From NCBI GenBank assembly GCA_965202985.1, contig CBDBCF010000002.1, positions 256,001-320,000 on the forward strand: a stretch of DNA of 64,000 bases. The letters are read 5' to 3'. The notes below the pieces were generated by a model, which saw nothing but the letters and a program-made list of their open reading frames with translations, was not told the origin of the DNA and ran no database searches. Of the stretch, positions 29,514-58,728 are shown one piece after another. Positions within the stretch are counted from its first letter, which is position 1; each line of letters opens with the position of its first letter. A program made the position numbers and the translations under genes. Origin of the DNA: Longimicrobiales bacterium. Its GTDB lineage: Bacteria; Gemmatimonadota; Gemmatimonadetes; Longimicrobiales; Gaopeijiaceae.

Positions 29514-30497
29514 CTAGTTCGCGAGTCGGGCGATCAGCTCCGTGACCGTGTCGCACTCGATGACGGCGTCCGCCGCCGCGTCCAGCTGGTCGCCTCCGTC
29601 CAAGTCGCCGATCACGCCCGACAACTGCACGGCTGCGTCCGCGCCGAACTTTTTGGCCACCTGGCGCTCCAAGACGGTCCTGGATCCCTCCCGGCGGCCC
29701 TCGTCCCGCAGCCTTGCCATCTCTTCTTCGATCTGCGTGTACATGTCCCTCGCCTCCGTCAAGTTGGTGATCTTCGACAGTTCTTCTTCCGAACGTCCCC
29801 ACTTCCGAGCCGCGCCCAACGCCCACAGCGCGAACGCCTCCGCGATCCCTGCGTGCTCGGGACCCGGGTACACCTCCAGCACCTCGTCCAGCACGGCCCG
29901 GACCTTCGCCGTGCCGCCGTCCCGCTCGAGCTTCCTCAACCAAGTCAGGATGCGCCGCTTCCGCAAGCTTCGCCCGGGTGCCGCGCGCATGTCAAGCACT
30001 TGGTAGGGCAGCCGGACCGAGAGGTCGCGGAGCTGGGGCAGCGTGGGCGAGATCAGGTCGGCGATGTCGAGGCGGGCGTCCCAAGGACCGGGGCCGTTGT
30101 GGACGACGCAGACGACGACGGGGGGCAGCCGGTGGTCAGCGCCGGACGGCGTCTCGCGGATTAGGTTCTCGTAGGCGTCGGTCACGTAGCGGAGGACGCG
30201 GGCGGCCATGGATGGGTCGACTCGGGACTGGAATTCGAGGAGCAGGATCATGAATCCGGGGCGGTGTCGGAAGTCGACGCGCCAGATCATGTCGGCCTGT
30301 CGGCGTTCGAGCCGGGAGCTGACGTGCTCCGGCGTGAACTTGCGCAGCGAGTCGAGGTCGAGTTGGTCGGCCCAGTCGGGAGCGATGTAATCTTCGAGGA
30401 GTTCTGCGACGGTGGGGGCCTGGGAGAAGAAGAACTTGTAGACCTCGTCGTGCTTGCGGCGGGGGAAGTCGGGCTTGGCGGACGTGGGATTGGGCAA
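29514..30497 (-). CDS. Rpn-family recombination-promoting nuclease / putative transposase
   Basis: AAGGAGG RBS plus TTG; HDEVYKFFF, RQADMIW, LLEFQSRVDPSMAARVLRY, LPPV..VVHNG..W. Confidence 0.88.
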   Translation of the reverse strand: MPNPTSAKPDFPRRKHDEVYKFFFSQAPTVAELLEDYIAPDWADQLDLDSLRKFTPEHVSSRLERRQADMIWRVDFRHRPGFMILLLEFQSRVDPSMAARVLRYVTDAYENLIRETPSGADHRLPPVVVCVVHNGPGPWDARLDIADLISPTLPQLRDLSVRLPYQVLDMRAAPGRSLRKRRILTWLRKLERDGGTAKVRAVLDEVLEVYPGPEHAGIAEAFALWALGAARKWGRSEEELSKITNLTEARDMYTQIEEEMARLRDEGRREGSRTVLERQVAKKFGADAAVQLSGVIGDLDGGDQLDAAADAVIECDTVTELIARLAN

Positions 30498-30669
30498 CGG
30501 GGTCCTCCTTGGACGCGGGGTTCGCGGGTTGGCGGAGGCCCTTGGGGAGCGCTCCGGGCCCGGGGGAATGGCCGGGGCCGGAAGCAAGATGCACCCGGAA
30601 ATTGGGCGTTTGGATAGCTGGATCGGCCCAACTTTGCGGCTGTGACGGACCGGAGGGGCGCAGCCCCTT

Positions 30670-31791
30670 CTACCGGAACGAGAGTCCGAACGTGTGCGAG
30701 ACCGACAGGGGCGGGTAGCGACTCTCGCGGCGTCCGTGACGCTGATACGCATAGTCGAGGCGGATGCGGTCGCCGGCGAAGCCTCCGCCGAAGGTGAGTT
30801 CGTAGAAGCTGCCGTTCCGATCGTCGGGCATCCGCAGAACGCCGGCCCGAGCGATGAACACGCGGCGCAGCAGCGGCCACCACGCCACCTCCACGCCGGC
30901 TCCGGCCAAGAGCTCGCCGCGCCCGTTGCGGACCAATCGCGCGGCACCTCCCACGTCCAGAGGCCCGACAGGCGTTCGTTCGGTCCCGGCGCCCAAGGTC
31001 ACTCGCCGGGCCAGCGGCACCGTCGGGCCTTCCAGCTCCATCCGCAGCTCCGGCCCCAGGTTCTGCACCGTCAGCGCCACGGTGGCCGGCCCCACTTCGG
31101 TGCTCGCGCCCGCATCGACCGCCCCCGTGACGCCTCTCCGCGTCCCGACCCGCAGACCGACGGCCTTCACCGCGCCGCCCAGCGTGAAGCCGCCGATCTC
31201 GCGGGAGAACGCCCCGGCGGCCACGTACCCGGACGCGGCCTCTTGTCCGGTCCCGCCGAGGTCGATTGCGTTCCGGGGCCAAGCCCAGGGCTCCTCGCCG
31301 TTAGTGTCGTACTCCAAGAACGCCAGCCCAACGCCGGCGACGCCGCCCATCCACCCCGCGCTCCCGCTCATCGCGAGGAAGCCCACCCCGTCCGCCAGCG
31401 CCGACGGATCGTGGAAGTGCTGCCAGCTCATGCCGAAGCCGCCGCTGGACATGAGCGACGGGTGGTGGAAGATCGCCCCGGCCTCGTCGCCCGCCGTCCA
31501 GAAGGCGCCGCCGAGAGCGACGGCCCTGGCGCCGACCGGCAGTTCCAGCATCAGCGGTCCGGGGTCCGGGGGACCGCCGCAGGGCCTTCCCTCGACACAG
31601 GGCGTCGTAGCGGCAACGCTGTATTGCGCCCAAGCGCCTTGGGGCGCGAACCAAACGGCCAGCGCGATCCCGAACGACATCGGCAGCGCAAGCGAAGTCG
31701 GCAACGAGAGCGACAAGTCGGCCCGCGGCAGCGACCCGGTGGTGGCGCTCCCCCTTGTTCCGCGCGGTGTGTTGCTGGCAAGGTGGGCCAT
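30670..31791 (-). CDS. PorV/PorQ-like outer-membrane beta-barrel (start uncertain)
   Basis: LELPVGARAVALGGA, IFHHPS, TVQNLG, LDYAY. Confidence 0.7.
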   Translation of the reverse strand: MAHLASNTPRGTRGSATTGSLPRADLSLSLPTSLALPMSFGIALAVWFAPQGAWAQYSVAATTPCVEGRPCGGPPDPGPLMLELPVGARAVALGGAFWTAGDEAGAIFHHPSLMSSGGFGMSWQHFHDPSALADGVGFLAMSGSAGWMGGVAGVGLAFLEYDTNGEEPWAWPRNAIDLGGTGQEAASGYVAAGAFSREIGGFTLGGAVKAVGLRVGTRRGVTGAVDAGASTEVGPATVALTVQNLGPELRMELEGPTVPLARRVTLGAGTERTPVGPLDVGGAARLVRNGRGELLAGAGVEVAWWPLLRRVFIARAGVLRMPDDRNGSFYELTFGGGFAGDRIRLDYAYQRHGRRESRYPPLSVSHTFGLSFR

Positions 31792-36816: not shown

Positions 36817-37686
36817 ATGGCCTTGACTCTTGCTTACCTGGGACCGGAGGGGACGTACAGCGAGCAAGCGGCGCTGGGGTACGGTCCGCGGGCTCGGCGG
36901 GTGCCGTTCGGAAGCATTCCGGCGGCGATCCGGGCGGCGGAGGGCGGGGAGGCGGACGAGGCGGTCGTGCCGATCGAGAACAGCTTGGAGGGCGCCGTCA
37001 CCTCGACGACCGACCTGCTGATCCACGAGACGGCGCTCAAGATCAAGCGCGAGATCGTCGTCCCGATCCGCCATTGCCTGGTCCTGCCGCCGGGCGCCGA
37101 CGCGGCCCAGGTCGCCGTGATCTTCTCCCACCCCCAAGCGACGGCGCAGTGCCGCGGCTACTTGGGACGGCGCTTCCCGGACGCGGGGCTCTCGGCGTCG
37201 CTCAGCACCGCCGCGGCCGTGGGGGACATGTTGGTGAGCAAGCGCCCCGCCGCGGCCGTCTCCAGCCGTCGCGCGGCCGAACTGTTCGGCGGCGAAGTCG
37301 TCGCGAGCGGGATCGAGGACGCCGCGAACAACCAGACCCGGTTCGTGGTCCTGGGCGCCGACGACGCCCCGCCCACGGGCCGCGACAAGACGTCCGTCTG
37401 CTTCGACTTCAGCCACGACGGCCCCGGCATCCTCCACAACGCCCTAGGCGCGCTGGCGTCGCGCGAGATCAACATGCTCAAGATCGAGTCCCGCCCCGAC
37501 AAGCGAAGCCCCGGCCGCTACTACTTCCTGCTGGACGTGGAGGGCCACCGCACCGACCCCGCCGTCCGCGACGCCCTTGCGGACATTGCCCGGCCCGCCG
37601 CGTCGTTCAAGGTTCTAGGCTCGTATCCCAGGGCGGACCGAGAGGGGGACAGGGACAAGGCCGCTGTTGAACGACGACCAAGATGA
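36817..37686 (+). CDS. pheA: Prephenate dehydratase
   Basis: AYLGPEGTYSEQA, VPIENSLEG, SHPQA..QC, NQTRF, ACT domain KIESRP. Confidence 0.95.
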   Translation: MALTLAYLGPEGTYSEQAALGYGPRARRVPFGSIPAAIRAAEGGEADEAVVPIENSLEGAVTSTTDLLIHETALKIKREIVVPIRHCLVLPPGADAAQVAVIFSHPQATAQCRGYLGRRFPDAGLSASLSTAAAVGDMLVSKRPAAAVSSRRAAELFGGEVVASGIEDAANNQTRFVVLGADDAPPTGRDKTSVCFDFSHDGPGILHNALGALASREINMLKIESRPDKRSPGRYYFLLDVEGHRTDPAVRDALADIARPAASFKVLGSYPRADREGDRDKAAVERRPR

Positions 37687-37995
37687 GACGGTAGTGACAA
37701 CCAGATGAGACCGTCGGAGGCGGCTGTGATCCGAGGTCGAGGGTTCGCGTGCGGGCTTGGTCCTGTCGTTCGGAGTCGATCGTCGGTGATCGTGGAGAGG
37801 GTCCAGCTACATCAGCCTGCCCGAATGAGGAGGAGTGCTGATGGCCAGCTGGCACGTGAAATGATGGCCAGGTGAGGTAGTACATCGGACCCGATCGGAC
37901 CGACCGCTCCCGCGTGGACAACGTTGTTCCCAATCGGTTGGCGACTACGAGTGCGCAGCCAAGCTTGAACGACGCTGTCCCCCACGGCTGCAACC

Positions 37996-38024
37996 TTGAC
38001 GCACAGACGAAATCCCACTTTAAT
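37996..38024 (+). promoter_or_regulatory. Sigma70-type promoter TTGACG-N17-TTTAAT
   Basis: Near-consensus hexamers with 17-nt spacing upstream of the AAGGAG RBS and ATG 38079. Confidence 0.6.
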
Positions 38025-38078
38025 GTGCGACTATTTGTAGGCAACCAACCACATTCTCGAAAGGAGTCCAAGATCACC

Positions 38079-38315
38079 ATGAGCAGACTCGCCAAGAAAC
38101 CCGTCGCCCCGATCGTCGAGATCCTCCTACAGATCAAAGAAGGCCAGCGCCCCACGCAGGGAGACGCCCTGGAAGAGGCGATCGCACGTAGGTGCGTCAC
38201 GGAGCGGATTTCCGAGCCACCGCTTGATCCGGATGTTCCTCCCCCGCCTCCCGTGTACGCACTTACGGGCAAGGGCGAGGAGTACCTAGCGCAACAGGAA
38301 GACGCCAACCAGTAG
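38079..38315 (+). CDS. 78-aa hypothetical protein, winged-helix-like
   Basis: Own promoter and AAGGAG RBS; YALTGKGEEYL wing-like motif; diverged duplicate 384 bp downstream. Confidence 0.65.
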   Translation: MSRLAKKPVAPIVEILLQIKEGQRPTQGDALEEAIARRCVTERISEPPLDPDVPPPPPVYALTGKGEEYLAQQEDANQ

Positions 38316-38343
38316 GAGACGATAAGAAGACGAGTGCGGAGGC

Positions 38344-38380
38344 CGCTCAACGAAGGCCGGTGCCTCGACCCCGGTGCCAC
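38344..38380 (-). CRISPR. Solo degenerate type I-G repeat
   Basis: CGCTCAACGAAGGCCGGTGCCTCGACCCCGGTGCCAC, 4 mismatches to the array consensus. Confidence 0.85.
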
Positions 38381-38416
38381 TGCCGACTTCTTCGCTGGGC
38401 TGGGTGGAGCACGGCA

Positions 38417-38445
38417 CGGTCTATCCCCGCACACACGGGGAAGCC
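38417..38445 (-). CRISPR. Solo type I-E-like repeat
   Basis: 29 nt; minus strand GGCTTCCCCGTGTGTGCGGGGATAGACCG has the CCCCG/CGGGG stem and ATAGACCG handle of I-E repeats. Confidence 0.7.
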
Positions 38446-38489
38446 CCCGTCCGTCAGGCGTCCGGCCGACGACGACGGCGCGACGAACC

Positions 38490-38697
38490 GCCCCGATCAT
38501 CGAGATCCTGCGGACAGATCAAAAACGGCCAGCGCTCCACGCAAGGGGATGCCCTGGAAGGGGCAATCGCACGCTGGTACGTCACGGAGTGGACTCCCGA
38601 TCAACCGCTTGATCCAGGTGTCCCTACCCAGCCTCCCATGTACGCACTTACGGGCAAGGGCGACGAGTGCCTAGCGCAACAGGAAGACGCCAACTAG
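38490..38697 (+). pseudogene. Frameshifted, 5'-truncated duplicate of the 38079-38315 gene
   Basis: APIIEIL / +1 shift / QIKNGQRSTQGDALEGAIARWYVTE...YALTGKGDECLAQQEDAN; the 30-nt 3' flank is also duplicated. Confidence 0.75.
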
Positions 38698-38728
38698 TAG
38701 GAGACGACAAGAAAACGAGTGCGCAGGC

Positions 38729-41700
38729 CGCTCAAACGAAGGCCGGGGTCGACCCCGGCAACACGCGTGCAGGGCAGGGGTGGTCACCGAGACCGGTCCC
38801 GCTCAACGAAGGCCGGGATCTCGACCCCGACAACACCCGAAGGTTCCGGCTTGCAATGTGTCGCAAATCGCTCGCTCAACAAAGGCTGGGGCCTCGACCC
38901 CGGCAACACACCTCGGCGCACGCGGCTTCCCACAACACGGACGCGCGCTCAACGAAGGCCGGGGCCTCGACCCCGGCAACACGTCGGTGTCCCACTTCAA
39001 CATGACCGGCTCTGGGCGCGCTCAACGAAGGCCGGGGCCTCGACCCCGGCAACACTCGCACCTGCCATGGGCAGGTTGGACCGACGGGCAGCGCTCAACG
39101 AAGGCCGGGGCCTCGACCCCGGCAACACTCGCACCTGCCATGGGCAGGTTGGACCGACGGGCAGCGCTCAACGAAGGCCGGGGCCTCGACCCCGGCAACA
39201 CGGGCGGTGGTCGGGTTGGCCATGGTGGCGCATCCGGTCGCTCAACGAAGGCCGGGGCCTCGACCCCGGCAACACCGGCCCGGGGCGGGTTGCGCGCGTT
39301 GCGAAAAAGCTCGCTCAACGAAGGCCGGGGCCTCGACCCCGGCAACACCAGCGTGCCGGCTGGCCACGCGGCCTCGATTTCGAACGCTCAACGAAGGCCG
39401 GGGCCTCGACCCCGGCAACACTCGAGCAAGCGACGTATGGCGCGGCGTGGTTCGACGCCGCTCAACGAAGGCCGGGGCCTCGACCCCGGCAACACGACGC
39501 CCTAGGGCGCGTCTAGGGCAGGCTGGACGCCCGCTCAACGAAGGCCGGGGCCTCGACCCCGGCAACACGTGCCCCGGCGCATCTCCACGCCGGTGTCGGT
39601 GAACGCTCAACGAAGGCCGGGGCCTCGACCCCGGCAACACCGGATCGGGGCCGACGCGCGATTGCCCACCTCGAGCGCTCAACGAAGGCCGGGGCCTCGA
39701 CCCCGGCAACACTTGCAGGATCAAGTGGGGCGTGGCGCCGCGAAAGTACGCTCAACGAAGGCCGGGGCCTCGACCCCGGCAACACTTCAGCGGATGCGTC
39801 GATGGTGAGCACGAACGAGGACGCTCAACGAAGGCCGGGGCCTCGACCCCGGCAACACGACGGATGGCCGCTTCCAGCGCTGGACATTGAAAACGCTCAA
39901 CGAAGGCCGGGGCCTCGACCCCGGCAACACCTGCTCGCCAGACATCGGGGACTCGGTCTCCGGCCCGCTCAACGAAGGCCGGGGCCTCGACCCCGGCAAC
40001 ACACGCCAGTATCGAACGACGGCGCCACGGTCCGGCACGCTCAACGAAGGCCGGGGCCTCGACCCCGGCAACACCCCATCTCCTGAAGACCCGCGGAGAG
40101 CAGGCGGGCCGCTCAACGAAGGCCGGGGCCTCGACCCCGGCAACACGAAGCGTCATGACGCTGGCCCGCCTCGAGTCCAGCCGCTCAACGAAGGCCGGGG
40201 CCTCGACCCCGGCAACACTGTCTCCGTTGGTTGGCGATGGTCCATGCACTAATCCGCTCAACGAAGGCCGGGGCCTCGACCCCGGCAACACACGACGCGA
40301 TACGGCTGGCGACCGAGCGCATGGAGCTCGCTCAACGAAGGCCGGGGCCTCGACCCCGGCAACACGTCATGACCGACGAAACAATCTCCGTGCTGGACCC
40401 GCTCAACGAAGGCCGGGGCCTCGACCCCGGCAACACGCGTCCGATCCGCCCGTCGCCGACGAGGTGCAGCGCGCTCAACGAAGGCCGGGGCCTCGACCCC
40501 GGCAACACCGCGTGTTCGTGCCGTATTGCGGGCACGGCGTGGCCGCTCAACGAAGGCCGGGGCCTCGACCCCGGCAACACCCGGCCCGGAACCGACAGAA
40601 ACGCACGAAGAGGATCGCTCAACGAAGGCCGGGGCCTCGACCCCGGCAACACACCGACGCGCAGATCAACACGCTGGCCGATGGTCGCCGCTCAACGAAG
40701 GCCGGGGCCTCGACCCCGGCAACACATCCCGCCGCCCAGCATGACCCGGCCGCTCCCGACCGCTCAACGAAGGCCGGGGCCTCGACCCCGGCAACACGAG
40801 GCCAGCGCGATCGCGAGGCAGCACGTGCTGCACGCTCAACGAAGGCCGGGGCCTCGACCCCGGCAACACCGGGATCAGAGACGCCATCATGTCGGGCAGG
40901 CGGGCCGCTCAACGAAGGCCGGGGCCTCGACCCCGGCAACACTCGCCGCCGCGATGTCACTTCGGTTCCAGCTTTACATACGCTCAACGAAGGCCGGGGC
41001 CTCGACCCCGGCAACACGAGCAGCTGGCGGAGCGGTTCACGTTCGATCGAGTGACCGCTCAACGAAGGCCGGGGCCTCGACCCCGGCAACACATCACCGT
41101 GGTCGAGACGGTGCCGACGCGAGGGCTCGCTCAACGAAGGCCGGGGCCTCGACCCCGGCAACACAGGCGCCGCCGGGTAGTCCGAGACATAGTCTCAATC
41201 CGCTCAACGAAGGCCGGGGCCTCGACCCCGGCAACACAATAGTTCGCGACTCTCTCCCGATACGATCATGTCCGCTCAACGAAGGCCGGGGCCTCGACCC
41301 CGGCAACACGCGGAGCCGTCGTTGCGACTCCGGGCGCTGGAGCCCGCTCAACGAAGGCCGGGGCCTCGACCCCGGCAACACATCTGATCGTCCAGCAGCA
41401 ATGCGAGCTTTTCGAGATCGCTCAACGAAGGCCGGGGCCTCGACCCCGGCAACACTCGGCCCAGAAGTCCTTCAGCGCGTACTTCGAGATCGCTCAACGA
41501 AGGCCGGGGCCTCGACCCCGGCAACACATGCCGTAGTCGTCGCAGTCGGCGACCTCCGGCGTCGCTCAACGAAGGCCGGGGCCTCGACCCCGGCAACACA
41601 CCACTCGTCCGGGCGCATCGGCGTGCCCGGCCCGCGCTCAACGAAGGCCGGGGCCTCGACCCCGGCAACACTGCACCACTAGTCCGGGCGCATCGGCGTG

Positions 41701-44700
41701 CCCGGCCCTCGCTCAACGAAGGCCGGGGCCTCGACCCCGGCAACACCTCGTCGCGCACGCGCGTGCCCCACTTGGTCTGCTCGCTCAACGAAGGCCGGGG
41801 CCTCGACCCCGGCAACACCTCCGACAACGCCTCGTGGCCTTCGTGGTCAAGGCCGCTCAACGAAGGCCGGGGCCTCGACCCCGGCAACACCTCCGACAAC
41901 GCCTCGTGGCCTTCGTGGTCAAGGCCGCTCAACGAAGGCCGGGGCCTCGACCCCGGCAACACTCACGGGCATCGACGAACCCGTGAAAGGCGCCGCGCGC
42001 TCAACGAAGGCCGGGGCCTCGACCCCGGCAACACGAAGCTGAACCGCGACGTCTATTTCCCGATGGCGGACCGCTCAACGAAGGCCGGGGCCTCGACCCC
42101 GGCAACACACGTGCACGCACGTGGCCCGCGCGGCGCCGCGGACCGCTCAACGAAGGCCGGGGCCTCGACCCCGGCAACACACGTGCACGCACGTGGCCCG
42201 CGCGGCGCCGCAGACCGCTCAACGAAGGCCGGGGCCTCGACCCCGGCAACACACGCCCCCGAGCTACAAGACCCAGAAGCACGTGCTCGCTCAACGAAGG
42301 CCGGGGCCTCGACCCCGGCAACACTTTCGAGGGAGCGTCGGCCGGCCCGTGCCGAACAGCCGCTCAACGAAGGCCGGGGCCTCGACCCCGGCAACACGAC
42401 CGGGAAGCCTCGCGCCTCCCGCGTATCCTAATGCGCTCAACGAAGGCCGGGGCCTCGACCCCGGCAACACTTGCTGCAAACAGTGAATACGAACAGTATC
42501 GGACGTCGCTCAACGAAGGCCGGGGCCTCGACCCCGGCAACACGAGACGACGAGGACGTGGCCCTGGCGGAGGCGGAGCGCTCAACGAAGGCCGGGGCCT
42601 CGACCCCGGCAACACCGGGCTTCCGCCGCCGCCGCTGAACGTGGACACGTCCGCTCAACGAAGGCCGGGGCCTCGACCCCGGCAACACCGCCCACTTTCG
42701 CTTGCGTTCGCGCTCCCATTGTGCGCTCAACGAAGGCCGGGGCCTCGACCCCGGCAACACTTGGCGTTGCCCGTGCCGCTCGCCGCATGGGCGGACGCTC
42801 AACGAAGGCCGGGGCCTCGACCCCGGCAACACGTCGTGTCCTCGTCCGTGATCACGATGGGCTTGACCGCTCAACGAAGGCCGGGGCCTCGACCCCGGCA
42901 ACACGGTTCAATCGTTCCAAGATTCGCTGCGGTTGATCGCGCTCAACGAAGGCCGGGGCCTCGACCCCGGCAACACTGGTGCTCTTGGTGGTGCTCATGT
43001 CGTTCTCCTAGAACGCTCAACGAAGGCCGGGGCCTCGACCCCGGCAACACGTAGCGTGGAGGCCCGCGTAGATGGCGCGCCCGAGACGCTCAACGAAGGC
43101 CGGGGCCTCGACCCCGGCAACACCCGCGCGAGACGGTGCCCAGGGGGAACGAGCCGAACGCTCAACGAAGGCCGGGGCCTCGACCCCGGCAACACCGCCG
43201 CCGTGCCGTTGCTCGCGCTCGTGACCACCCACGCTCAACGAAGGCCGGGGCCTCGACCCCGGCAACACCGCAAGCGGCAGTGGGCTCCGTCGCCATCCCG
43301 ACCAGCGCTCAACGAAGGCCGGGGCCTCGACCCCGGCAACACAGCTGGTCGATCCCCTGCTGGTCCTGCGGTGCCATCCGCTCAACGAAGGCCGGGGCCT
43401 CGACCCCGGCAACACCGCGTCGTCGTGATGGCGGACATGCACATGTGGCACGCTCAACGAAGGCCGGGGCCTCGACCCCGGCAACACCACGACCTTTCCG
43501 ACACGTCCTGCGCTTCTTCGAGCGCTCAACGAAGGCCGGGGCCTCGACCCCGGCAACACCCGTGTCGTGGTCGATGCCCCTTTCCCTGGCGGCCGCCGCT
43601 CAACGAAGGCCGGGGCCTCGACCCCGGCAACACGGTCGTGTACGCGCCAAGCGTCGCAGACCCGATCCCTCGCTCAACGAAGGCCGGGGCCTCGACCCCG
43701 GCAACACCTCCGCCAAGCCGTCGGTGTCGAACTTCGCCATCACCGCTCAACGAAGGCCGGGGCCTCGACCCCGGCAACACAGCTGCCGGCCACGCGCACG
43801 GCAAGGGCATGAAGTCCGCTCAACGAAGGCCGGGGCCTCGACCCCGGCAACACCCAGTCGGCCAGCACGTCGTCGTACAGATCGTTGGGCGCTCAACGAA
43901 GGCCGGGGCCTCGACCCCGGCAACACGTCCGCAACGTCAACAGGAGACGCCGCGACATGCACGCTCAACGAAGGCCGGGGCCTCGACCCCGGCAACACCC
44001 GGCGGTGCGCCAGCGCCCATGCCAAACGATGAGCCGCTCAACGAAGGCCGGGGCCTCGACCCCGGCAACACTGGCCACCTTCCACGCCGCCTGCGTGCGC
44101 GACATCGCTCAACGATGGCCGGGGCCTCGACCCCGGCAACACGGCCGACGTGGCGCCTGGCCCCAGCGCGTCGGCAACGCTCAACGAAGGCCGGGGCCTC
44201 GACCCCGGCAACACGCCGGCAGCGAGCGCGGGGAGATCGGGATTTTCGACCGCTCAACGAAGGCCGGGGCCTCGACCCCGGCAACACCATCGGAGAGCGG
44301 ACGCATCTGCGCCTGCACGGTCACGCTCAACGAAGGCCGGGGCCTCGACCCCGGCAACACGGCCGGCGAGAGCCACGTCGAGCCTCCGTCCAGGGACGCT
44401 CAACGAAGGCCGGGGCCTCGACCCCGGCAACACTGGCGGGCGGCTGGAAGTCCCCGCAGATGCCGGCGTACGCTCAACGAAGGCCGGGGCCTCGACCCCG
44501 GCAACACCGCCGGCAGCGAGCGGGGGGAGATCGGGATTTTCGATCGCTCAACGAAGGCCGGGGCCTCGACCCCGGCAACACCACCTCCGGACACCAGCCC
44601 AGCACCGCCTGCAACGACGCTCAACGAAGGCCGGGGCCTCGACCCCGGCAACACCTGTCACGTCACCACCGTGCCGACGAGCTGACCCTCCGCTCAACGA

Positions 44701-47700
44701 AGGCCGGGGCCTCGACCCCGGCAACACGAGGCAGTTGGGCTCGCACGTGCGGCAGACGCCCCACGCTCAACGAAGGCCGGGGCCTCGACCCCGGCAACAC
44801 GTGGAGGCATTGGAAGCGCAGGTTCGGACGCAATCCGCTCAACGAAGGCCGGGGCCTCGACCCCGGCAACACGACTACGAGGGGCTCTACACGTCCGAGC
44901 GGGTGCACGCTCAACGAAGGCCGGGGCCTCGACCCCGGCAACACGAGAGAGACATGACGGACGCTACGACGACGACCGCTCAACGAAGGCCGGGGCCTCG
45001 ACCCCGGCAACACTCGTGTGGATGACTGCCGACGGCCGCGACTGGGTCGCTCAACGAAGGCCGGGGCCTCGACCCCGGCAACACAGGCGCGCCGCCGGGA
45101 GCGCAAGGTGCGCAAGGTCGCGCTCAACGAAGGCCGGGGCCTCGACCCCGGCAACACCAGGAACAAAGGACGTCATCGCTCCTCCTCCATCGCCGCTCAA
45201 CGAAGGCCGGGGCCTCGACCCCGGCAACACTTCGGGCAGCGCGTCCAGCATCTGACGAACGGGGTCCGCTCAACGAAGGCCGGGGCCTCGACCCCGGCAA
45301 CACACGAAGAGAAGTCCGCGCGGACGTTCGCCGCGGACGTCGCTCAACGAAGGCCGGGGCCTCGACCCCGGCAACACGTCTCCGACGAACACTCGCAAGT
45401 CGACGACGTAGCCGCTCAACGAAGGCCGGGGCCTCGACCCCGGCAACACCTCGCCGTCGCCGACGCGCACGCAAACCATGCGGCCCGCTCAACGAAGGCC
45501 GGGGCCTCGACCCCGGCAACACTCCTCGCGACGTGCGGCGCGAACGTAATGCACAAGCGCTCAACGAAGGCCGGGGCCTCGACCCCGGCAACACGGCCGA
45601 CGTAGAGAAGCGTAACACTTCCGACCATGCGCTCAACGAAGGCCGGGGCCTCGACCCCGGCAACACCCCTTTCCGTTGGTCGGCTGCTCGTCGCCCGGCT
45701 CCGCTCAACGAAGGCCGGGGCCTCGACCCCGGCAACACGCCTTGGCGGCGCGCAGCGTGGAAGCATACACGCTGGCGCTCAACGAAGGCCGGGGCCTCGA
45801 CCCCGGCAACACCGCCGCAGGCGTCCATGTTCCGAAGTCGATGGGCTCCGCTCAACGAAGGCCGGGGCCTCGACCCCGGCAACACCAGCTCTTCCAACGC
45901 CAGGCTGTCGGACCTCTGGACCGCTCAACGAAGGCCGGGGCCTCGACCCCGGCAACACACGGTCACGGTGACAGACAACGACGACTTCGTGCGACGCTCA
46001 ACGAAGGCCGGGGCCTCGACCCCGGCAACACGGACTGCGCCGTCGCGGCGGCGCGGCGCTTGGGCACGCTCAACGAAGGCCGGGGCCTCGACCCCGGCAA
46101 CACCCTGGCGGGGCTGGGGGGATCGTCGGCCAGCTTGAACGCTCAACGAAGGCCGGGGCCTCGACCCCGGCAACACCGTCGCGGCAAGGCGGGCGTGGCG
46201 CCGGAATCCGCACCGCTCAACGAAGGCCGGGGCCTCGACCCCGGCAACACCGGCGCGTCGGTCAGCCAGTTCGCGATCGGACAGGCCGCTCAACGAAGGC
46301 CGGGGCCTCGACCCCGGCAACACGATACGGCGAGCCGCCGTCCGGACAGACCAGCGCCGCTCAACGAAGGCCGGGGCCTCGACCCCGGCAACACTGCGTC
46401 CCCGCCGTAATGCGCCTCGACCAGCGGGACGCTCAACGAAGGCCGGGGCCTCGACCCCGGCAACACGCCGCCCCCGCCCCCCAGCCGGGCCGGGAGGATG
46501 CACGCTCAACGAAGGCCGGGGCCTCGACCCCGGCAACACAGGGCGCGATGGCGCCGCTCGAGATGCTGATGGCGCACGCTCAACGAAGGCCGGGGCCTCG
46601 ACCCCGGCAACACACGTTCAGCAAGACGGGTTCGCCCCTGCTCAACCGCGCTCAACGAAGGCCGGGGCCTCGACCCCGGCAACACGCCTGGTACAGCGCG
46701 CGCTTGCGCCCCCGGACGGTCGCTCAACGAAGGCCGGGGCCTCGACCCCGGCAACACAACCGGATCTCGCCCTTCCTCGCGAAGATGCACGGCGCTCAAC
46801 GAAGGCCGGGGCCTCGACCCCGGCAACACGTCGAGGGTCTCGGACGCCGGTACGGAGTCCACGAACGCTCAACGAAGGCCGGGGCCTCGACCCCGGCAAC
46901 ACATGGCCGCGATCCCCAGGATGGCCGCGGGGGCGACCGCTCAACGAAGGCCGGGGCCTCGACCCCGGCAACACGCGTATCCACCCTGCACCCGCGCGGA
47001 CACGTCAGGACCGCTCAACGAAGGCCGGGGCCTCGACCCCGGCAACACGGGAAACGACCATGATAGCCACCAATACCATGGTCACGCTCAACGAAGGCCG
47101 GGGCCTCGACCCCGGCAACACCTCCCACCCGATGAAGAGGGACTCCACGCCTCGCCGCCGCTCAACGAAGGCCGGGGCCTCGACCCCGGCAACACTGGTG
47201 GCGCGCGCCGTCCGCGCCTTCGGTCCGGTCCGCTCAACGAAGGCCGGGGCCTCGACCCCGGCAACACCGCGCCGCCGAACTACAAGACGCAGAAGCAGAC
47301 GCTCGCTCAACGAAGGCCGGGGCCTCGACCCCGGCAACACAGGCTGTCCTTGGTGCTCATGTCTTCTTCTCCTAGAACGCTCAACGAAGGCCGGGGCCTC
47401 GACCCCGGCAACACCGCACGCCACGGGTCAGCCCCCGGTACACGCCCTGCGCTCAACGAAGGCCGGGGCCTCGACCCCGGCAACACCGCGAGGTGCGGCA
47501 CGAGGCCGCGGAGCAGCATGCCCGCTCAACGAAGGCCGGGGCCTCGACCCCGGCAACACAGCCGCATCGTTCGTCGGCAGTCCAGTTCTTCACGGCGCTC
47601 AACGAAGGCCGGGGCCTCGACCCCGGCAACACATCACGACCAGGTCGGGCAAGGATTTCAGCTACTCCGCTCAACGAAGGCCGGGGCCTCGACCCCGGCA

Positions 47701-48500
47701 ACACGGTACAGCATCGGCGACCTGTGGGTAGACATCCCCCGCTCAACGAAGGCCGGGGCCTCGACCCCGGCAACACCGGAACATCGGGCAAGGATTGACC
47801 AGATGCTGGTCCGCTCAACGAAGGCCGGGGCCTCGACCCCGGCAACACCCCCGGCGAGCAGCGCGTGCCGCCGCGTTCTTTGCGCGCTCAACGAAGGCCG
47901 GGGCCTCGACCCCGGCAACACCAGACCTCGACTTCCTCTGCGACGAAACCTGCCTCGCTCAACGAAGGCCGGGGCCTCGACCCCGGCAACACCGCTGATG
48001 CACTGGCGGCCGTCCGACGCACTGTACCCCGCTCAACGAAGGCCGGGGCCTCGACCCCGGCAACACACGAGCCTCGTCGCCCGTCTGCCCTGGTGGCCGC
48101 ACGCTCAACGAAGGCCGGGGCCTCGACCCCGGCAACACGTTTTCCACGGAACGTATGCTGGCTTCTTTACCCACGCTCAACGAAGGCCGGGGCCTCGACC
48201 CCGGCAACACCTGTGCGTCGCCGCCGGCGTGGAGGCCGTGAAGGCCGCTCAACGAAGGCCGGGGCCTCGACCCCGGCAACACCTTTTCGTGCGCTTCGCG
48301 CTCCGACTTGATTTTGGCCGCTCAACGAAGGCCGGGGCCTCGACCCCGGCAACACGGTCGTGTGGATGACCGCCGACGGCCGCGACTGGGTCGCTCAACG
48401 AAGGCCGGGGCCTCGACCCCGGCAACACATCTCGAACTCGGGCAGCAGCCCCTTGCGCGAAGCCGCTCAACGAAGGCCGGGGCCTCGACCCCGGCAACAC
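38729..48500 (-). CRISPR. Type I-G CRISPR array, about 135 repeats of 37 nt (GTGTTGCCGGGGTCGAGGCCCCGGCCTTCGTTGAGCG), spacers mostly 34-38 nt
   Basis: Repeats counted by eye, period about 72-75 nt. The three lowest-coordinate repeats are degenerate (trailer), so the leader is next to cas2. Confidence 0.98.
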
Positions 48501-48663: not shown

Positions 48664-48954
48664 TCAGACGACCCAAGGATCTCCGAGACGGCGAGCGCTG
48701 CGCCTTCCGTACTCCAACTTCGAGTCGTTGATTTCTCCGGAAAACCGATAGACGATCACCGAGTCATGTTCTTCGTCGATAGCATCCTGAACCTCGCCGA
48801 TCATCCGGGCGAATGAAGTTGGAGAGACCCTGCACTCGAACACGGAGAACTGGACGCGCTGTCCGTACTTCTTACATACCTGCGCTATTCTCCGCAGGCG
48901 CGGCGCTCCCGCACCCTCCGTGTCTCCAATATCGTACGACACCAGTATGTCCAT
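48664..48954 (-). CDS. cas2: CRISPR-associated endonuclease Cas2
   Basis: MDILVSYDI...RLRRIAQVCKKYGQRVQFSVFEC...DSVIVY. Confidence 0.96.
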   Translation of the reverse strand: MDILVSYDIGDTEGAGAPRLRRIAQVCKKYGQRVQFSVFECRVSPTSFARMIGEVQDAIDEEHDSVIVYRFSGEINDSKLEYGRRSARRLGDPWVV

Positions 48955-48958
48955 GGTC

Positions 48959-49975
48959 TCACGCCAGCACGAACGGAGGATAGGCTGGCAGGTCCCCACG
49001 CAAGGACCGGGCAAGCAGTGTGGCCTGAACCGACGGCAGTGCCCATCGGCCCACCGTTCTGTCGCACACCCGGTGATACAATTCGTCTTCCTTGTGTCTC
49101 TCCCATGCATGCAACAGATTGGTTCTTCCGTCGTCGCTCAAGTAACACGCACCACCGGGCGTCTCGACGAAACTATCACGCGAGACCTGTCTTCTGCGAA
49201 TGAGCGACACGACAAACCGATCCGAAAGCGGGCGCAATTCCTCCACAAGGTCAAGCGCTAGCGAGGGCCGACCCGATCGTGGCCGATGGAGAAACCCAAT
49301 CTGGTAGTCGAGGCCCACACTCTCCAAGGCTCCTATGAATTCAGTCAGCAACAGGCCATAACAGAATCCAAGCAGTGCGTTGGCCGGATCCCGGGGCGGT
49401 CTCCGCTTACGCCCAAAAAAGGGAAACCGGCTCTTCGCAAGAGCCTGTCTAACCGCCCGGAAGTAGACCCGTGCGGCATCGCCTTCGATCCCGCGCACAT
49501 GGTCCGCAGATTCCGCGTCCGCCACGCGTTCGATGCGTTGGCGGATTGATTCTGCTCGTTCGCCGAGTGTACGAGACCTGTCGTCATCCTGATCGTCACG
49601 TGACCATCTGCCTACCACTGTCCTGCAATTCTGAAGCTTTGCCGCCACGATCGACTTAGCAATCGCCAGCGACCGAGCTTCGTCGCTCGACGCTCGGTAC
49701 TGTGCGCTTCGCAGGTGAACGTTACCACCAGTTGCTCCGCCAACCACGAACCTGATTGCGCCGCTCCGACGCAGCGCTGCCACTCGTACACCTCTCCTAA
49801 CGCACTCTTCCATGGCCTGAGAAGTCAATTGGCCCCCGCCCAACAGGACAAGAGCGTCTATCGCTTCAAGGGGGATGTGCTGGCTCCCGTCTGGGGTAGT
49901 GATCCGAAGTGCGCCTTTCCGATGCCTGACCTTGGCCCGATGGTGGCGAACGTAGGCCGTATTCAAGTAGCGCAC
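48959..49975 (-). CDS. cas1: CRISPR-associated endonuclease Cas1
   Basis: RGIEGDAARVYF, RKRRPPRDPANALL, GFLH...SLALDLVEELRP. Confidence 0.97.
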   Translation of the reverse strand: MRYLNTAYVRHHRAKVRHRKGALRITTPDGSQHIPLEAIDALVLLGGGQLTSQAMEECVRRGVRVAALRRSGAIRFVVGGATGGNVHLRSAQYRASSDEARSLAIAKSIVAAKLQNCRTVVGRWSRDDQDDDRSRTLGERAESIRQRIERVADAESADHVRGIEGDAARVYFRAVRQALAKSRFPFFGRKRRPPRDPANALLGFCYGLLLTEFIGALESVGLDYQIGFLHRPRSGRPSLALDLVEELRPLSDRFVVSLIRRRQVSRDSFVETPGGACYLSDDGRTNLLHAWERHKEDELYHRVCDRTVGRWALPSVQATLLARSLRGDLPAYPPFVLA

Positions 49976-50583
49976 GAATAGACAACCTCCTTCATGTACC
50001 GGGCGACACGTTCCGGCGCACCGGTCACCTCAGGTAGGCAGTGATGTCTCAACTGACATTCGGTGCACCGTTGGTCATTCGGTGCAACGGGCAACACACC
50101 CGTTCGCAGCTGTTCTCGTATTGATCGAATTGTCGCCTTCACTGTCTGCCGTAGCGATGACGTCAACGACACCCTTTCGCGACGTCTCGGCCCGCCGTAC
50201 CATATGTCGCCTTCGGTGACGGTGGTATCGAGCATTTCTTCTAAGCACAGTGCCTGTGCGCAAAGCTGCAGATCGGCCGCATTTCCATGTCGAACGCCTG
50301 ATTTGTACTCAACGGGACGGAGGATGCCATTCTCGATTTCCACAACATCTGCCCGCCCCGAGAGTCCCAGGACCTCCGACCACAGCGGGATTGATCGCAT
50401 TACAAGTCTGCCTCGTTCCCTTCGATGTCGATCGGTGTCTACCCGGTGATGTGCGCGTAGTCCACGAACCGTATGTTTGTTGTGGAGCCAGACACCGTCG
50501 CCGTGAATGAGTGCGCATTGCCGGGAACAGTACGCGTAGTGCTCGAGGGCTGATATTCGAACGATCGGCTCTGGGCTCACCAT
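49963..50583 (-). CDS. cas4: CRISPR-associated Cas4 (stand-alone)
   Basis: ISALEHYAYCSRQ, GRADVVE, PVEYKSG, QLCAQALCLEEM, C-terminal CxxC...C. Confidence 0.96.
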   Translation of the reverse strand: MVSPEPIVRISALEHYAYCSRQCALIHGDGVWLHNKHTVRGLRAHHRVDTDRHRRERGRLVMRSIPLWSEVLGLSGRADVVEIENGILRPVEYKSGVRHGNAADLQLCAQALCLEEMLDTTVTEGDIWYGGPRRRERVSLTSSLRQTVKATIRSIREQLRTGVLPVAPNDQRCTECQLRHHCLPEVTGAPERVARYMKEVVYSCAT

Positions 50584-51488
50584 GGCTCTGAACCGAAAGC
50601 GCATGTGTAGTCACCCGAAGATCTTCTAGGGACGATTTTCCAGGCTGCGTGCACGCCGAGTCGGTGCCAGGTCGATCTGGCTTCAGGGTTCCAAACATCA
50701 AGCAATGCATCAATACCGTGGTGTTCCAGGGGTTGAGACCAAGCTGGCCAGAGAAACCGCCGTTCTCTCCGCTTGTCCAGTGCATCCTCGACTTCAACCA
50801 TTCGCCAGCCTCTTTGTAGGGGCGACACGCCAGACGCGCGGCCTAACCGTTCATCAGTCCCGTTGCCGCGGACAGGAAGAAGAGCCAGGCCAAAGAATGC
50901 GAGTATTTCAACGACAGGATCGACGAACTTGCCGTGTTCGTCAGATTGTGATCCTAAACGTGTCAGATCAAATCCCAACCCATTGTCCTTGACCCGTGCT
51001 GCTCGTCCCGCGAGGGAGTCCATCAGTCGATCTCGTGAAGACTGCGACAACGCCTTTTGCAATTTCAGAATGCGGTGATGAAGCCACTTGATGGGTCCAG
51101 GTCCGGCAGCGTCAAAAGGCGCGTGGGCAACTTCCCCATTTTTGTCCACATGCAAGTCCGTAAGTGTGGAAGATATCGTCCACGACTGAGGATCGCCGCG
51201 AGCGGCACGTGTTCGGGCAACCAGTGCGTCAACATGCACCTTGCGTTCCAATGGATTGTCGGGCTGCCATTCGGACGCCAATGGCATCGAGTCAAGTGCA
51301 TCTGCATCTGGCCACGCAGCCTCGAGAAGCGAAATCGGATCGTTGTCGTCGGCCGACAGAACTGCGATAGGCGTGGGCTCGGAGGTCCATCCCAACCGAA
51401 TTCGGGAATCAAGAACAGTGGCACCGACGGCCGCGAGCCAACCGTTGATCCAATCAGCCGGCAAGCCGATGCAGGATACATGGGCCAT
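50577..51488 (-). CDS. csb3: Type I-G large subunit, Csb3/Cas8u2-like
   Basis: Position after cas3; GWLAAVG, PVVEILAFFGLALLPV, FLWPAWSQPL; about 300 aa. Confidence 0.7.
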   Translation of the reverse strand: MAHVSCIGLPADWINGWLAAVGATVLDSRIRLGWTSEPTPIAVLSADDNDPISLLEAAWPDADALDSMPLASEWQPDNPLERKVHVDALVARTRAARGDPQSWTISSTLTDLHVDKNGEVAHAPFDAAGPGPIKWLHHRILKLQKALSQSSRDRLMDSLAGRAARVKDNGLGFDLTRLGSQSDEHGKFVDPVVEILAFFGLALLPVRGNGTDERLGRASGVSPLQRGWRMVEVEDALDKRRERRFLWPAWSQPLEHHGIDALLDVWNPEARSTWHRLGVHAAWKIVPRRSSGDYTCAFGSEPW

Positions 51489-54338
51489 TTATGTGGTCCT
51501 CTTGGTGGACAAAGTGGAGTTGCGTCCAGATACCGCATGGTCCGCCCGGCATACTATCGATTCCAGTAGCGCGAGGCCCCAGGGTCCGAATTCCGAATTG
51601 AGCCTATGGAACCTGGCTGGTTGCTCCCAATCGACCTCGGAAAGATCAGCAGACGTCGTGAGGGAATGGCCATCGATGCTGCAAGCCAAGGCCGCCGGAG
51701 CTTCGTCGAGCACAGGGCCGACGAGCGGCCGTCCGTGGCCATGATGGCTGATGACGAGATGAAGAAGCAATTCTCGCAGAAGTCCGGTGCCCCATTCGGA
51801 GTCGAAGTCGAGCCACTGACTCACGAGACGTGCGGACAGCACCTCGTGACGGCCTCCACGGGGCCATCCGGCGGCAACGCGGGCTGCGTTCCAACTGTGG
51901 CGCGGCAAGCCCGACTTGGCGAGCATAGCGCATGTGTGGTCGCCTCTGGGGTCCAGCCATCGCTGGAAGCGCTCGTCCGCTTTTCCAATGTCGTGTAGGC
52001 GACCGGCCCGTGCCACGACCTCAACCAAGTCGCGACGCATGCCAAGGCGATTTGCAATCGTCTGCGCATGCTTCTCGACATCCTCACTGTGACGGTCCAA
52101 GGATTCGACGTTCGCAGCCAAGGATCTCTCGTCGAACTCGTCGCTACTGCGCTCTTTCTCTGTGGTTTCAACACGAAGTCGAGCAACCTCTCCTCGTGGG
52201 ACAACTGCCACGGGATTCAGGGAGTCAACGAAGTCTGTCCACTCCTCTTGACGCCATCCCGACGGCGTATTTGCTTCCCGAAGGTTGTCCACAATCCGCT
52301 CGACAGCCTGTCGTTGCTCGGCAGGATCGAGATCGACGCCGTCTTCCTGGGGAATCCCCGTGGCCGTCCGGATCAACTTGTCGGGAAGGGCAACGCCGGA
52401 CATGCGCTTGATCGCAACCGGATCGAGTGGCAACCCGTTGCCAGGGAGGGACACGTCGACCACTGGCGACGCTCGCGACGACGGTTCCCACCCAAATTCG
52501 TCGAGAAGCCCACGGTCAACCGGAAGCACCAGCGAGTCTCCGGGTCGCAAGTCGTCGGCTCCGACCCTTTCGACGGTCACGCGATCTGCGGCGATCCGAT
52601 GTATTTCTTCATCCTGCTCCAGAGCTTCTCGAAATTCCCAAATTGGAACACTAACCGCCTCTCGGTCTTTTGCTCTGGGCCACAACCGAGCTCCTGCCAA
52701 GTCGCGCTGGCCGGTCGGGTCGCCGTCACCGTCGGGAATGTGCGCTCGCCAAATCACAGAGACCATGCGATCGACTCTGGCAATCCCAGAGAAAAACGAC
52801 TCCACCGGCGCTTCGCCAGGAGGCGGCGTGGTTGTCTTGATCCACTCCCACAGCAGTCCATAGAGAATTTCTGGCGCGCGTCCGCACTCGTCTTTGGGAA
52901 GGCCAAGGACCTCCTTGATGTGACGGGAGCAAAGGTTCAGTTCTTCCGACTCTTCGCCAGACCGTTTCTGAAGCCGCTGCCAGACGATCGCCGGCTCTGG
53001 ACCGTAGACAGGCCATTCAGCAGGATTGTTGGTTGGCGTGACGCGATGTTGCTTTGGTGGAGGTGCATGGAGGTACACAGCGCGAGCGTGATCATGACGG
53101 CCGAGCCGGTTCATCCGTCCGAATCGCTGCGTAAGCGCCCTTACTCCACAAGTCTCCGTAACGACATATTCGGCGTCGATGTCCGCTCCAACTTCCAGTG
53201 TTTGGGTCGCAACAACGACCAAGTGACGGTCTCGACACGCGCCATGCTCCCTGTCAGACGCCATGCCGTGCTCCGGATGGAGTATTCGACTTCGGATGTC
53301 CTCCGCTTCGCGTTCTCGTGCTCGCCCGGTCAGCAGCTTGACTTCCGCGTCGCGGCCCAGCAGCTTTCTCAGCAAACCGAACACTTGGCGTGCGGTTTTC
53401 GGAGTGTTGGCGAACACCACGCCTGCTGCCGGTGCTCGTGCGCGATCAAGCAAATCTCTCATCGCCTCGGCAAGCTTACTTGGCACGTCTTTGGCTTCGC
53501 ATTTTCGAAGTTCCACCGGCTTGGGCGCATCCAAGCGCTTTTTGACGATGGCGTTGTCGAAGTCGTTTTCGTCCAGGTCGAATCGCGAGGCGACCGGTTC
53601 GCCGCCGGTTGCGGTTAGGGATACGAGCTGTGGTTCGGATCGCGATTGAGGCAGAACGTCGTGTCCATGGGGAGCGCACCCCTGAAGGGCATCGCAGAGT
53701 GTTCGCAGGTGTGGCGCGAGATGGGCTTCGTCGAGCAAGACGAGACTGTCGGTTCCGGCCATGGCGGCGTCGATGGGACGCCGCATTCGGCTCGATCCGT
53801 AGCCACGAAACAAAAGCCGCGACCCGTACATCGGGAGTGTGGACAAGATGACTGCAGGCTGGGACGGATCGGTGGGCGTGCGGGATTCAACACCTCCTCG
53901 GAGCCGTATGACCTCCAAAGCACATGCCGAGGAAGATGCGCTGAGGGAACGCAGTCTGTCGCCGACGGCTGTGATGTCTCCACCAGCGGCGTCGGATCTC
54001 AATTCGACGCTCGATAGATCATCCAGGGCGGCCGCGAGCTTGTCAGCATGCTCCCAGGTGGAATCGACAAGCATGCGCCGGTTGACTACCCACCAGATCC
54101 GGGTTGGCGCGGACCGGAGAGTGGGATCAAGGTGCGCTTGGGACGCCAACCACCATACGGCAATGTCCAAACACGCCGTCTTGCCAAGGCCAGTCGGCAC
54201 ACCGACTTCAATCGGCCATCTGTTGTCTTCGCGGACTTGACGAGCAAGCCGAGCCTGCCAGGGAAACGGTTCACGGCCCTTGTTGATGGCCCGGTAGAAC
54301 GCTTCAAAGTCCGGCATTGGAAGCTGAGATTCGGTCAC
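51489..54338 (-). CDS. cas3: Type I-G Cas3 (helicase with C-terminal HD nuclease)
   Basis: PFPWQ, PTGLGKT, DEAH, TAT, QRFGRMNR; HDIGK, RHE, SHHG at the C terminus. Confidence 0.96.
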   Translation of the reverse strand: MTESQLPMPDFEAFYRAINKGREPFPWQARLARQVREDNRWPIEVGVPTGLGKTACLDIAVWWLASQAHLDPTLRSAPTRIWWVVNRRMLVDSTWEHADKLAAALDDLSSVELRSDAAGGDITAVGDRLRSLSASSSACALEVIRLRGGVESRTPTDPSQPAVILSTLPMYGSRLLFRGYGSSRMRRPIDAAMAGTDSLVLLDEAHLAPHLRTLCDALQGCAPHGHDVLPQSRSEPQLVSLTATGGEPVASRFDLDENDFDNAIVKKRLDAPKPVELRKCEAKDVPSKLAEAMRDLLDRARAPAAGVVFANTPKTARQVFGLLRKLLGRDAEVKLLTGRAREREAEDIRSRILHPEHGMASDREHGACRDRHLVVVATQTLEVGADIDAEYVVTETCGVRALTQRFGRMNRLGRHDHARAVYLHAPPPKQHRVTPTNNPAEWPVYGPEPAIVWQRLQKRSGEESEELNLCSRHIKEVLGLPKDECGRAPEILYGLLWEWIKTTTPPPGEAPVESFFSGIARVDRMVSVIWRAHIPDGDGDPTGQRDLAGARLWPRAKDREAVSVPIWEFREALEQDEEIHRIAADRVTVERVGADDLRPGDSLVLPVDRGLLDEFGWEPSSRASPVVDVSLPGNGLPLDPVAIKRMSGVALPDKLIRTATGIPQEDGVDLDPAEQRQAVERIVDNLREANTPSGWRQEEWTDFVDSLNPVAVVPRGEVARLRVETTEKERSSDEFDERSLAANVESLDRHSEDVEKHAQTIANRLGMRRDLVEVVARAGRLHDIGKADERFQRWLDPRGDHTCAMLAKSGLPRHSWNAARVAAGWPRGGRHEVLSARLVSQWLDFDSEWGTGLLRELLLHLVISHHGHGRPLVGPVLDEAPAALACSIDGHSLTTSADLSEVDWEQPARFHRLNSEFGPWGLALLESIVCRADHAVSGRNSTLSTKRTT

Positions 54339-54343
54339 GGTTT

Positions 54344-56955: not shown

Positions 56956-56997
56956 GTGATCCTCCAAGAGTGGATGGGATTGGGGCGTATGGACAGC

Positions 56998-58632: not shown

Positions 58633-58728
58633 CCACCGGGGTCGGCCCCCCATTGACCTTCAACGGAAACGTTACGTACCTTTATCGTGTCCATTTTTCG
58701 TTCCTGCGAACGCGAGGCCAACCCGAAG

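Follow-up and report, generated by a model that had tools for sequence, protein, structure and literature searches.

The window analyzed here is a stretch of 64,000 nucleotides (nt) from a Longimicrobiales bacterium of the Gaopeijiaceae (assembly GCA_965202985.1, contig CBDBCF010000002.1, positions 256,001 to 320,000), and coordinates below are positions in this window. It contains a complete type I-G CRISPR-Cas locus, and we focus on a small module at the trailer end of its array, in which an orphan open reading frame (ORF) is duplicated and interleaved with solitary CRISPR repeats. The module lies between pheA and the cognate I-G array. pheA (prephenate dehydratase; 36817-37686, + strand; Pfam PDT and ACT domains) is the conserved left anchor of a variable CRISPR site, with orthologues at 79 to 93% in all three congeners (G001, G002, and G003; the host genome is G000, and G122 and G201 are other relatives). 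The array (38729-48500, - strand) consists of 135 repeats and 134 spacers, and its leader adjoins cas2 of the operon csb1, csb2, cas3, csb3/cas8g, cas4, cas1, and cas2 (48664-56967, - strand). The repeat is 37 nt long, its first C being invariant in all 135 copies. An 8-nt handle has been reported for type I-G (10.1101/2022.08.08.503147). With a 37-nt repeat and an 8-nt handle, RNA past the terminal repeat would therefore start at 38728, in agreement with the first-pass annotation of this DNA.

The ORF encodes 78 amino acids (aa) on the + strand (copy 1, 38079-38315) and is preceded by AAGGAG at 38061, which resembles a ribosome-binding site (RBS). Upstream, within a stretch of 46% GC, is a sigma70-like promoter (37996-38024, + strand) that agrees with the consensus at 10 of 12 positions and consists of a -35 element, TTGACG (37996-38001), a 17-nt spacer, and a -10 element, TTTAAT (38019-38024). 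Sites this good (at least 10/12 with a 17-nt spacer) occur 48 times genome-wide, or about 0.001 per 150 nt, and this rarity, together with AAGGAG, supports the proposal that the gene has its own promoter and RBS. A strict promoter scan listed no promoters, the -10 element being without A at position 2, and a scan of the + strand between the promoter and the array found no terminator. A solo type I-G repeat (38344-38380, - strand), with four substitutions, an intact 8-nt handle, and a weakened stem, starts 28 nt past the ORF stop. Next come a spacer-length segment of 36 nt (38381-38416, - strand), for which neither a genome seed scan nor blastn against the fetched loci found a target, and a second solo repeat (38417-38445, - strand), which is of type I-E. 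Beyond these lies copy 2 (38489-38728, + strand), a 5'-truncated, frameshifted duplicate of the ORF and its 3' flank that is without the promoter, the RBS, and the first 8 to 9 codons and whose stop comes one codon early. The duplicated blocks (38105-38343 and 38489-38728) are identical at 208 of 239 positions (87%), with one 1-nt gap. Copy 2 is joined to the terminal I-G repeat (38729-38764, - strand), which retains a 7-bp stem and has an extra U beside the handle, with one extra and two missing bases overall; most of the 8-nt handle is kept in both the solo I-G and the terminal repeat.

A motif marking the gene-repeat junctions occurs at 37947, 38330, and 38715, with spacings of 383 and 385, and its first 8 nt are also found at 38663. 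At the leftmost site (37947-37996), a 12-nt core shared with the junctions is followed by weakly repeat-like sequence, which folds unlike a repeat (-7.3 versus -16.9 kcal/mol). The 5' parts of the two units of about 384 nt are not homologous (P = 0.93), so a plain tandem triplication is ruled out. The first-pass annotation had described the small gene with a solo I-G repeat about 30 nt on, the frameshifted second copy joined to the terminal repeat about 384 bp away, the three motif copies, and a match of 13 of 14 nt between RNA following the terminal repeat and 37960-37947, with a mismatch at guide position 2 and a CTT flank; all of this was borne out. Its account of interleaved solo repeats was accurate for the I-G repeat and missed that the other is of type I-E. 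Contigs from public sequencing runs, four of the seven listed runs having been compared, cover the trailer with no differences (X1 over 37587-38972, X4 over 38280-38593, and X6 over 38611-38795). X1 is possibly the source sample, and X4 and X6 come from other studies. These identical contigs indicate that the trailer structure is no assembly artifact.

The I-E repeat places the module in a wider context. It is 28/29 identical to the repeats of I-E arrays in G001 and G002 and is the only I-E repeat copy in the host genome. Those two congeners carry I-E systems with a 29-nt repeat and a 61-bp period, beside cas6e; Cas6e, present in both, had no match in the host genome, which is 92% complete. 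Five I-E repeats, all of them decayed, lie in the same orientation immediately behind pheA in G002. At the pheA site of G001 and G003 there is a different I-G clade, with Csb1 34 to 36% identical, a cas4/1 fusion, another repeat, and an identical layout. The four congeners have three different CRISPR-Cas systems at the pheA-adjacent site. The cargo in the slot between pheA and the array also differs in each (insertion sequence elements, a DuOB gene driven by a 10/12 promoter of its own, an AlbA-RecG gene, and unclassified ORFs), and the genes on the far side of the site are common to the congeners. In G003 the cargo sits behind its own 10/12 promoter. The variety of systems and cargo at one position marks it as a swap site. 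Nor is the host genome peculiar in having a cargo gene with its own promoter that faces a trailer. Arrays with the host's relic I-E repeat are present in runs X1, X4, and X6, and possible I-E donors would co-occur in those samples. As a separate observation, the decayed I-E mini-array behind pheA in G002 (locus L012, 1641-1960) is reversed relative to the main I-E array 10 kb away.

Two spacers of the host array match cas genes of rival I-G systems. The oldest spacer (38765-38799, - strand) has its match in the Cas1 domain of the other I-G clade's cas4/1 fusion, at 33/35 positions in G001 and 29/35 in G003 and G122, with a TAC flank in each of the three; the G001 gene belongs to the clade that occupies the pheA site in that congener. 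Spacer 38 (45739-45775, - strand) matches cas3 of another I-G system in G122 (32/37, TAT flank). The comparison covered 134 spacers and 17 fetched CRISPR loci (297 kb), and the best of 252 reversed controls still had 8 mismatches. A match of spacer 96 to cas3 (8 mismatches, GCC flank) was dropped because one of the 252 controls also reached 8. Host Cas1 is 37 to 39% identical to cas4/1 at the protein level, and the host's best DNA match to the oldest spacer has 16 mismatches; the host's own cas1 is no target of this spacer. No spacer has a near-full match to the host genome outside the array. As a spacer, the oldest one was found only in the host among 314 genomes, and a conspecific contig from run X3 appears to have lost it. 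It may still work, since both surrounding repeats keep their stems. Published spacers of Escherichia coli CRISPR3 match cas1, cas3, and csy2 of the Ypest (I-F) system (PMC2886076). The host spacers may record that a rival island at this site was displaced or defended against, in whichever order these events came. It is conceivable, although we lean against it, that targeting of cas1 and cas3 in rival I-G islands at this site lets the I-G system hold its chromosomal slot.

Taken together, the module probably consists of trailer debris and an orphan cargo gene, located beside pheA where CRISPR systems are swapped. The trailer of the I-G array would have eroded at a site where CRISPR-Cas islands and their cargo are repeatedly exchanged, and the 78-codon ORF would be orphan cargo, driven by its own promoter and directed toward the array. 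Recombination, whether intrachromosomal or with incoming DNA of a relative, would have set a second block of gene end, flank, and repeat beside the first, catching the spacer-length piece and the relic I-E repeat between the two; both the kind and the order of these events are conjectural. The 13/14 match would then arise because 37947 is an older, decayed gene-repeat junction and not a Cascade target, and the module would be free of Cascade regulation.

The exact 12-nt core occurs twice in the genome, both times at the trailer, and the chance of finding such a word near the trailer is 0.00065 when only the 31-nt flanks are considered and 0.059 when the whole unit is. If the sites are paralogous, similarity should extend past the core, and weak similarity was seen on both sides of 37947. 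To the left, 12/16 positions agree with the gene end (P = 0.012 to 0.023 versus copy 1 and 0.17 to 0.24 versus copy 2), and to the right there is similarity to the terminal repeat (P = 0.02 to 0.04). When the core was removed and both flanks were taken together, P was 0.008 to 0.027 versus copy 2 and 0.05 to 0.13 versus copy 1. The earlier suggestion of a third, decayed copy at 37947-37994 therefore stands in part: the flank similarity is modest and in its favor, and single sides are often not significant. The junction pattern has 11 matches in genome contigs, and in no case does a full repeat follow or the gene precede. The best reading of the 12-nt match is a decayed third junction or an insertion footprint; chance is unlikely, and neither of the two needs Cascade.

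The two copies and their history point in the same direction. Over 60 codons, copies 1 and 2 differ by 7 synonymous and 17 nonsynonymous changes, giving a ratio of nonsynonymous to synonymous substitution rates (dN/dS) of 0.74 to 0.98; that of pheA between G000 and G001 is 0.13. Selection on both copies (dN/dS up to 0.3) was rejected (P = 0.011), and to judge from these sequences the copies appear to have diverged near-neutrally. The X3 contig, a conspecific metagenome contig from another study, differs from 37331-38223 at 3 of 893 nt and then passes through a foreign spacer end of 21 letters into a repeat. The ORF is thereby interrupted at codon 48, the two solo repeats are missing along with copy 2 and the proposed guide, and the promoter is retained. 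Given this one conspecific contig without the module, the module appears to be dispensable.

Several observations weigh against this interpretation. A model with one live and one dead copy (dN/dS 0.55) was not rejected (P = 0.21), and the rare near-consensus promoter, the intact frame of copy 1, the RBS, and coding-like base use (GC by codon position of 0.73/0.44/0.72, resembling the cas genes) fit ongoing selection. The X3 joint is seen in a single contig at a depth of 9.2, with 33 letters on its short side, aligned at 82% likeness, and joint loss of a toxin and its antitoxin in X3 would also fit an addiction module. Most of 13 flank comparisons at 37947 were not significant, an anchored test gave P = 0.37, and the flank tests were post hoc and uncorrected for multiple comparisons, so that they would lend a third copy weak support. 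The spacing of 383 and 385 has no explanation, given the lack of homology between the 5' parts of the units. Finally, the CreA RNA of Acinetobacter baylyi matures and works without a 3' hairpin (10.1101/2024.01.05.574328).

Alternatively, the 12-nt word could be the footprint of an insertion: a 383-bp cassette of promoter and ORF would have entered the trailer, leaving the word on either side as a direct repeat, and the right part would have been duplicated subsequently, with no guide function involved. The word does flank the promoter and ORF on both sides (37947 and 38330) and is nonrandom by the flank estimate (P = 0.00065), and an insertion would account for the unrelated 5' parts of the units and the weak flank matches at 37947. 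However, an empty-site allele was not seen in the congeners or the runs, neither an integrase nor inverted ends were noted close to the cassette, and an insertion would leave unexplained why the sequence right of 37947 is repeat-like. We consider such an insertion unlikely, although it is the leading alternative.

The protein itself gave few clues. A language model assigned the ORF a recognition score of 2764, a level reached by 9 of 100 shuffled proteins. Homologues were absent from 60 relatives, from 5 candidates, and from 520 longer proteins, and none of those proposed in 313 family genomes was credible; pattern matches in 21, 231, and 172 stretches yielded no confirmed homologue, and two further searches gave no candidate, with the limit that these searches lean on short shared words or a two-row profile and could miss distant relatives of a 78-aa protein. 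Three candidates were dropped: a repetitive 639-aa sequence without a matched stretch (E = 8.7e-4), a frame in G095 with an internal stop and no DNA similarity (E = 2.2e-5, in 1 of 313 genomes), and a match inside an unrelated long frame that was the best at related I-G loci (E = 0.003). The first-pass annotation had called the protein winged helix-turn-helix (HTH)-like and had suggested looking for relatives at CRISPR trailers. No homologue and no confident fold emerged from the homology and structure searches. No HTH family matched in Pfam (E ≤ 1) or NCBIfam; PHROGs, PADLOC, and NCBIfam gave nothing significant, a PHROG regulator reaching E = 0.26, and Rfam gave one chance match (E = 6.4). 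The predicted structure has four helices and no strand, in a low-confidence model from a two-row alignment (predicted local distance difference test score of 66, predicted template modeling score of 0.24). With this model Foldseek returned no matches at E ≤ 0.001 and VIA-align a best Z of 2.5, results that are uninformative on the fold. The nearest named cluster in an atlas search was HTH_27, at 0.87, with the family on 16% of its members, among weak leads of 0.81 to 0.87 to small HTH and YjhX-like clusters. The HTH_27 cluster shares 144 of 256 features with the ORF, below the 170 typical of true families. The winged-helix fold is unproven. We give somewhat less than an even chance to copy 1 still making a useful protein; if it does, the best guess is a small DNA-binding protein.

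A related explanation is that the ORF encodes such a DNA-binding protein with the 12-nt word as its operator, lying upstream of the promoter and downstream of the gene, or that the promoter mainly makes antisense RNA across the trailer. In its favor are the helix pattern and the C-terminal YALTGKG motif, which are reminiscent of winged-helix proteins, the HTH_27 lead, the PHROG regulator match, the lack of a + strand terminator before the array, and the survival of the promoter in X3. The word is not clearly palindromic, the copies are without purifying selection, and the atlas lead falls short of true family membership, all of which make this explanation quite improbable.

The proposal with which this DNA was first annotated was that of a Cascade-repressed toxin or regulator similar to CreTA/CreR and CrePA: RNA past the terminal repeat would guide I-G Cascade to 37947-37960 and repress the promoter from which a 78-aa protein, toxic or regulatory, is expressed. 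In its favor are the nonrandom 13/14 match beside a repeat, the strong promoter, the mostly retained handles of both repeats, the hairpin-free maturation of A. baylyi CreA, the weak atlas leads to small HTH and YjhX-like clusters, and the joint loss of the 3' half of the gene and the guide in X3. Nevertheless, the seed, the protospacer-adjacent motif (PAM), the target position, and conservation all failed to support it, and the X3 contig is without the module. PAM-proximal pairing, with every sixth base excused, is broken at position 2 for the guide from 38728 and at positions 2 and 5 for that from 38343. The target is flanked by CTT, in contrast to TAC and TAT at the two credible protospacers of this array (n = 2). 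CTT does not fit TTN either, the PAM expected for other I-G systems. The last position of the target is 37960, which leaves 35 nt up to the -35 element starting at 37996, and an R-loop there would point away from that element. In CrePA the -35 element directly follows the target, and changing position 1, 5, or 10 alone derepresses 3.5- to 8.4-fold (10.1101/2024.01.05.574328). The PAM of a Bifidobacterium I-G system is TAT (PMC12915315), and what I-G Csb2 binds is the 3' hairpin, as opposed to the 5' handle (10.1101/2022.08.08.503147); neither candidate guide is followed by a 3' repeat hairpin. No such module was present at the four closest I-G loci (Csb1 64 to 74% identical), where the arrays end in other sequence. 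The trailer RNA has a longer match, 28/31, to the flank of copy 1, with repeat sequence at the PAM position. Repeat sequence at that position is the usual self signal. No guide with an 11-nt seed was found against the cas promoter or leader, local matches of 8 to 12 nt lying inside cas genes or being without a TAN or TTN flank; no guide showed a seed of at least 11 nt with such a flank, apart from one 12-nt match, among 41, of the middle spacer. We therefore hold Cascade repression of this gene to be of similarly low probability. Still less likely is a terminal I-G repeat that doubles as an antitoxin gene, with a hairpin-less read-through RNA in Cascade tolerating the position 2 mismatch and CTT and repressing an orphan toxin at a distance of about 35 nt upstream from its -35 element; we rank this below defense of the slot against rival islands, and a literature search found no type I-G case, although bioRxiv supplements with tables of predicted mini-arrays could list some.

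Other features of the window and of related loci were recorded. A dispersed noncoding repeat element (37665-37885) overlaps the pheA stop; blastn placed it at nine other positions in the genome, two of them over about 200 nt at 79 to 83%. This element, about 220 nt long, occurs in other parts of the genome and in G001 as both full and partial copies; it resembles a miniature inverted-repeat transposable element or a repetitive extragenic palindromic element and has no Rfam match. Within the array, near-duplicate and exact-duplicate spacers, some distant from each other and with 1 or 2 differences, lie at 39056-39164, 41600-41925, 42109-42215, 44215-44544, 45014, and 48356, which suggests array recombination or repeated acquisition from variant targets. 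Upstream of csb1, 57540-58150 is AT-rich and without a long ORF and likely contains the cas promoter or a foreign remnant. Farther upstream of the operon, translations indicate a pair of Phd/YefM-like antitoxin and PIN-like toxin genes (58687-59329), flanked by partial (58171-58656) and full (59422-60565) copies of a serine-hydrolase-like gene. They are followed at 60587-62100 by an HTH and IrrE/M78 peptidase-like gene that is common to the G001 island (89% DNA identity; the protein at locus L013 has Pfam Peptidase_M78). A YhgA-like gene (Transposase_31, Rpn family) is at 29514-30947. In G201, two related I-G operons each have only a two-repeat mini-array (L057, 11982-12088, directly after csb3; L058, about 7703-7810). 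The spacers of these mini-arrays share their first 13 and last 11 bases, suggestive of a conserved regulatory or homing guide, and no target was found in the fetched loci.

If the module is indeed debris at a swap site, it calls for caution, as trailer duplications beside repeats can create short guide-target matches by paralogy. The site documents type I-E and two I-G clades replacing one another among co-occurring congeners, and the cas-targeting spacers offer a first hint that the PAM of this I-G clade is TAN, along with an example in which exclusion of one CRISPR system by another could be tested. Were the guide model true instead, Cascade-repressed toxins would extend to type I-G, and assumptions about seed, PAM, and hairpin would have to change.

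Parts of this locus recall published systems. In E. coli CRISPR3 (PMC2886076), as here, spacers match cas genes of the system at the same locus of relatives; that array is short and cas-less, with targets in its own subtype, and is widely conserved, whereas in the present case the system is a complete I-G one, another I-G clade is matched by 2 of its 134 spacers, and only one genome shows this. The A. baylyi I-F CrePA (10.1101/2024.01.05.574328) and haloarchaeal CreTA (PMC9458426) systems likewise have a promoter-bearing small gene in a CRISPR locus and a repeat-adjacent match upstream of it. Unlike them, the host locus has a seed mismatch, no matching PAM, a target 35 nt from the -35 element, and no dedicated promoter-bearing guide gene, and no phage- or CRISPR-linked homologues of its gene were found; searches against viral sequences gave 0 matches for the repeat pattern and 0 for the ORF protein. 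The Racr solitary repeat units of phages (PMC10651486) also pair a repeat with a small, possibly HTH-like gene, but the one described here is chromosomal and adjoins its cognate array, and its repeat is antisense to the gene. The degenerate trailer ends and standalone repeats of PMC10120712 share with this locus decayed terminal repeats and isolated repeats outside the array. The functional mini-arrays in that report were chosen for conservation among related loci, which this module does not show, and in contrast to the arrangements described there, I-G and I-E repeats are here interleaved with a duplicated orphan gene.

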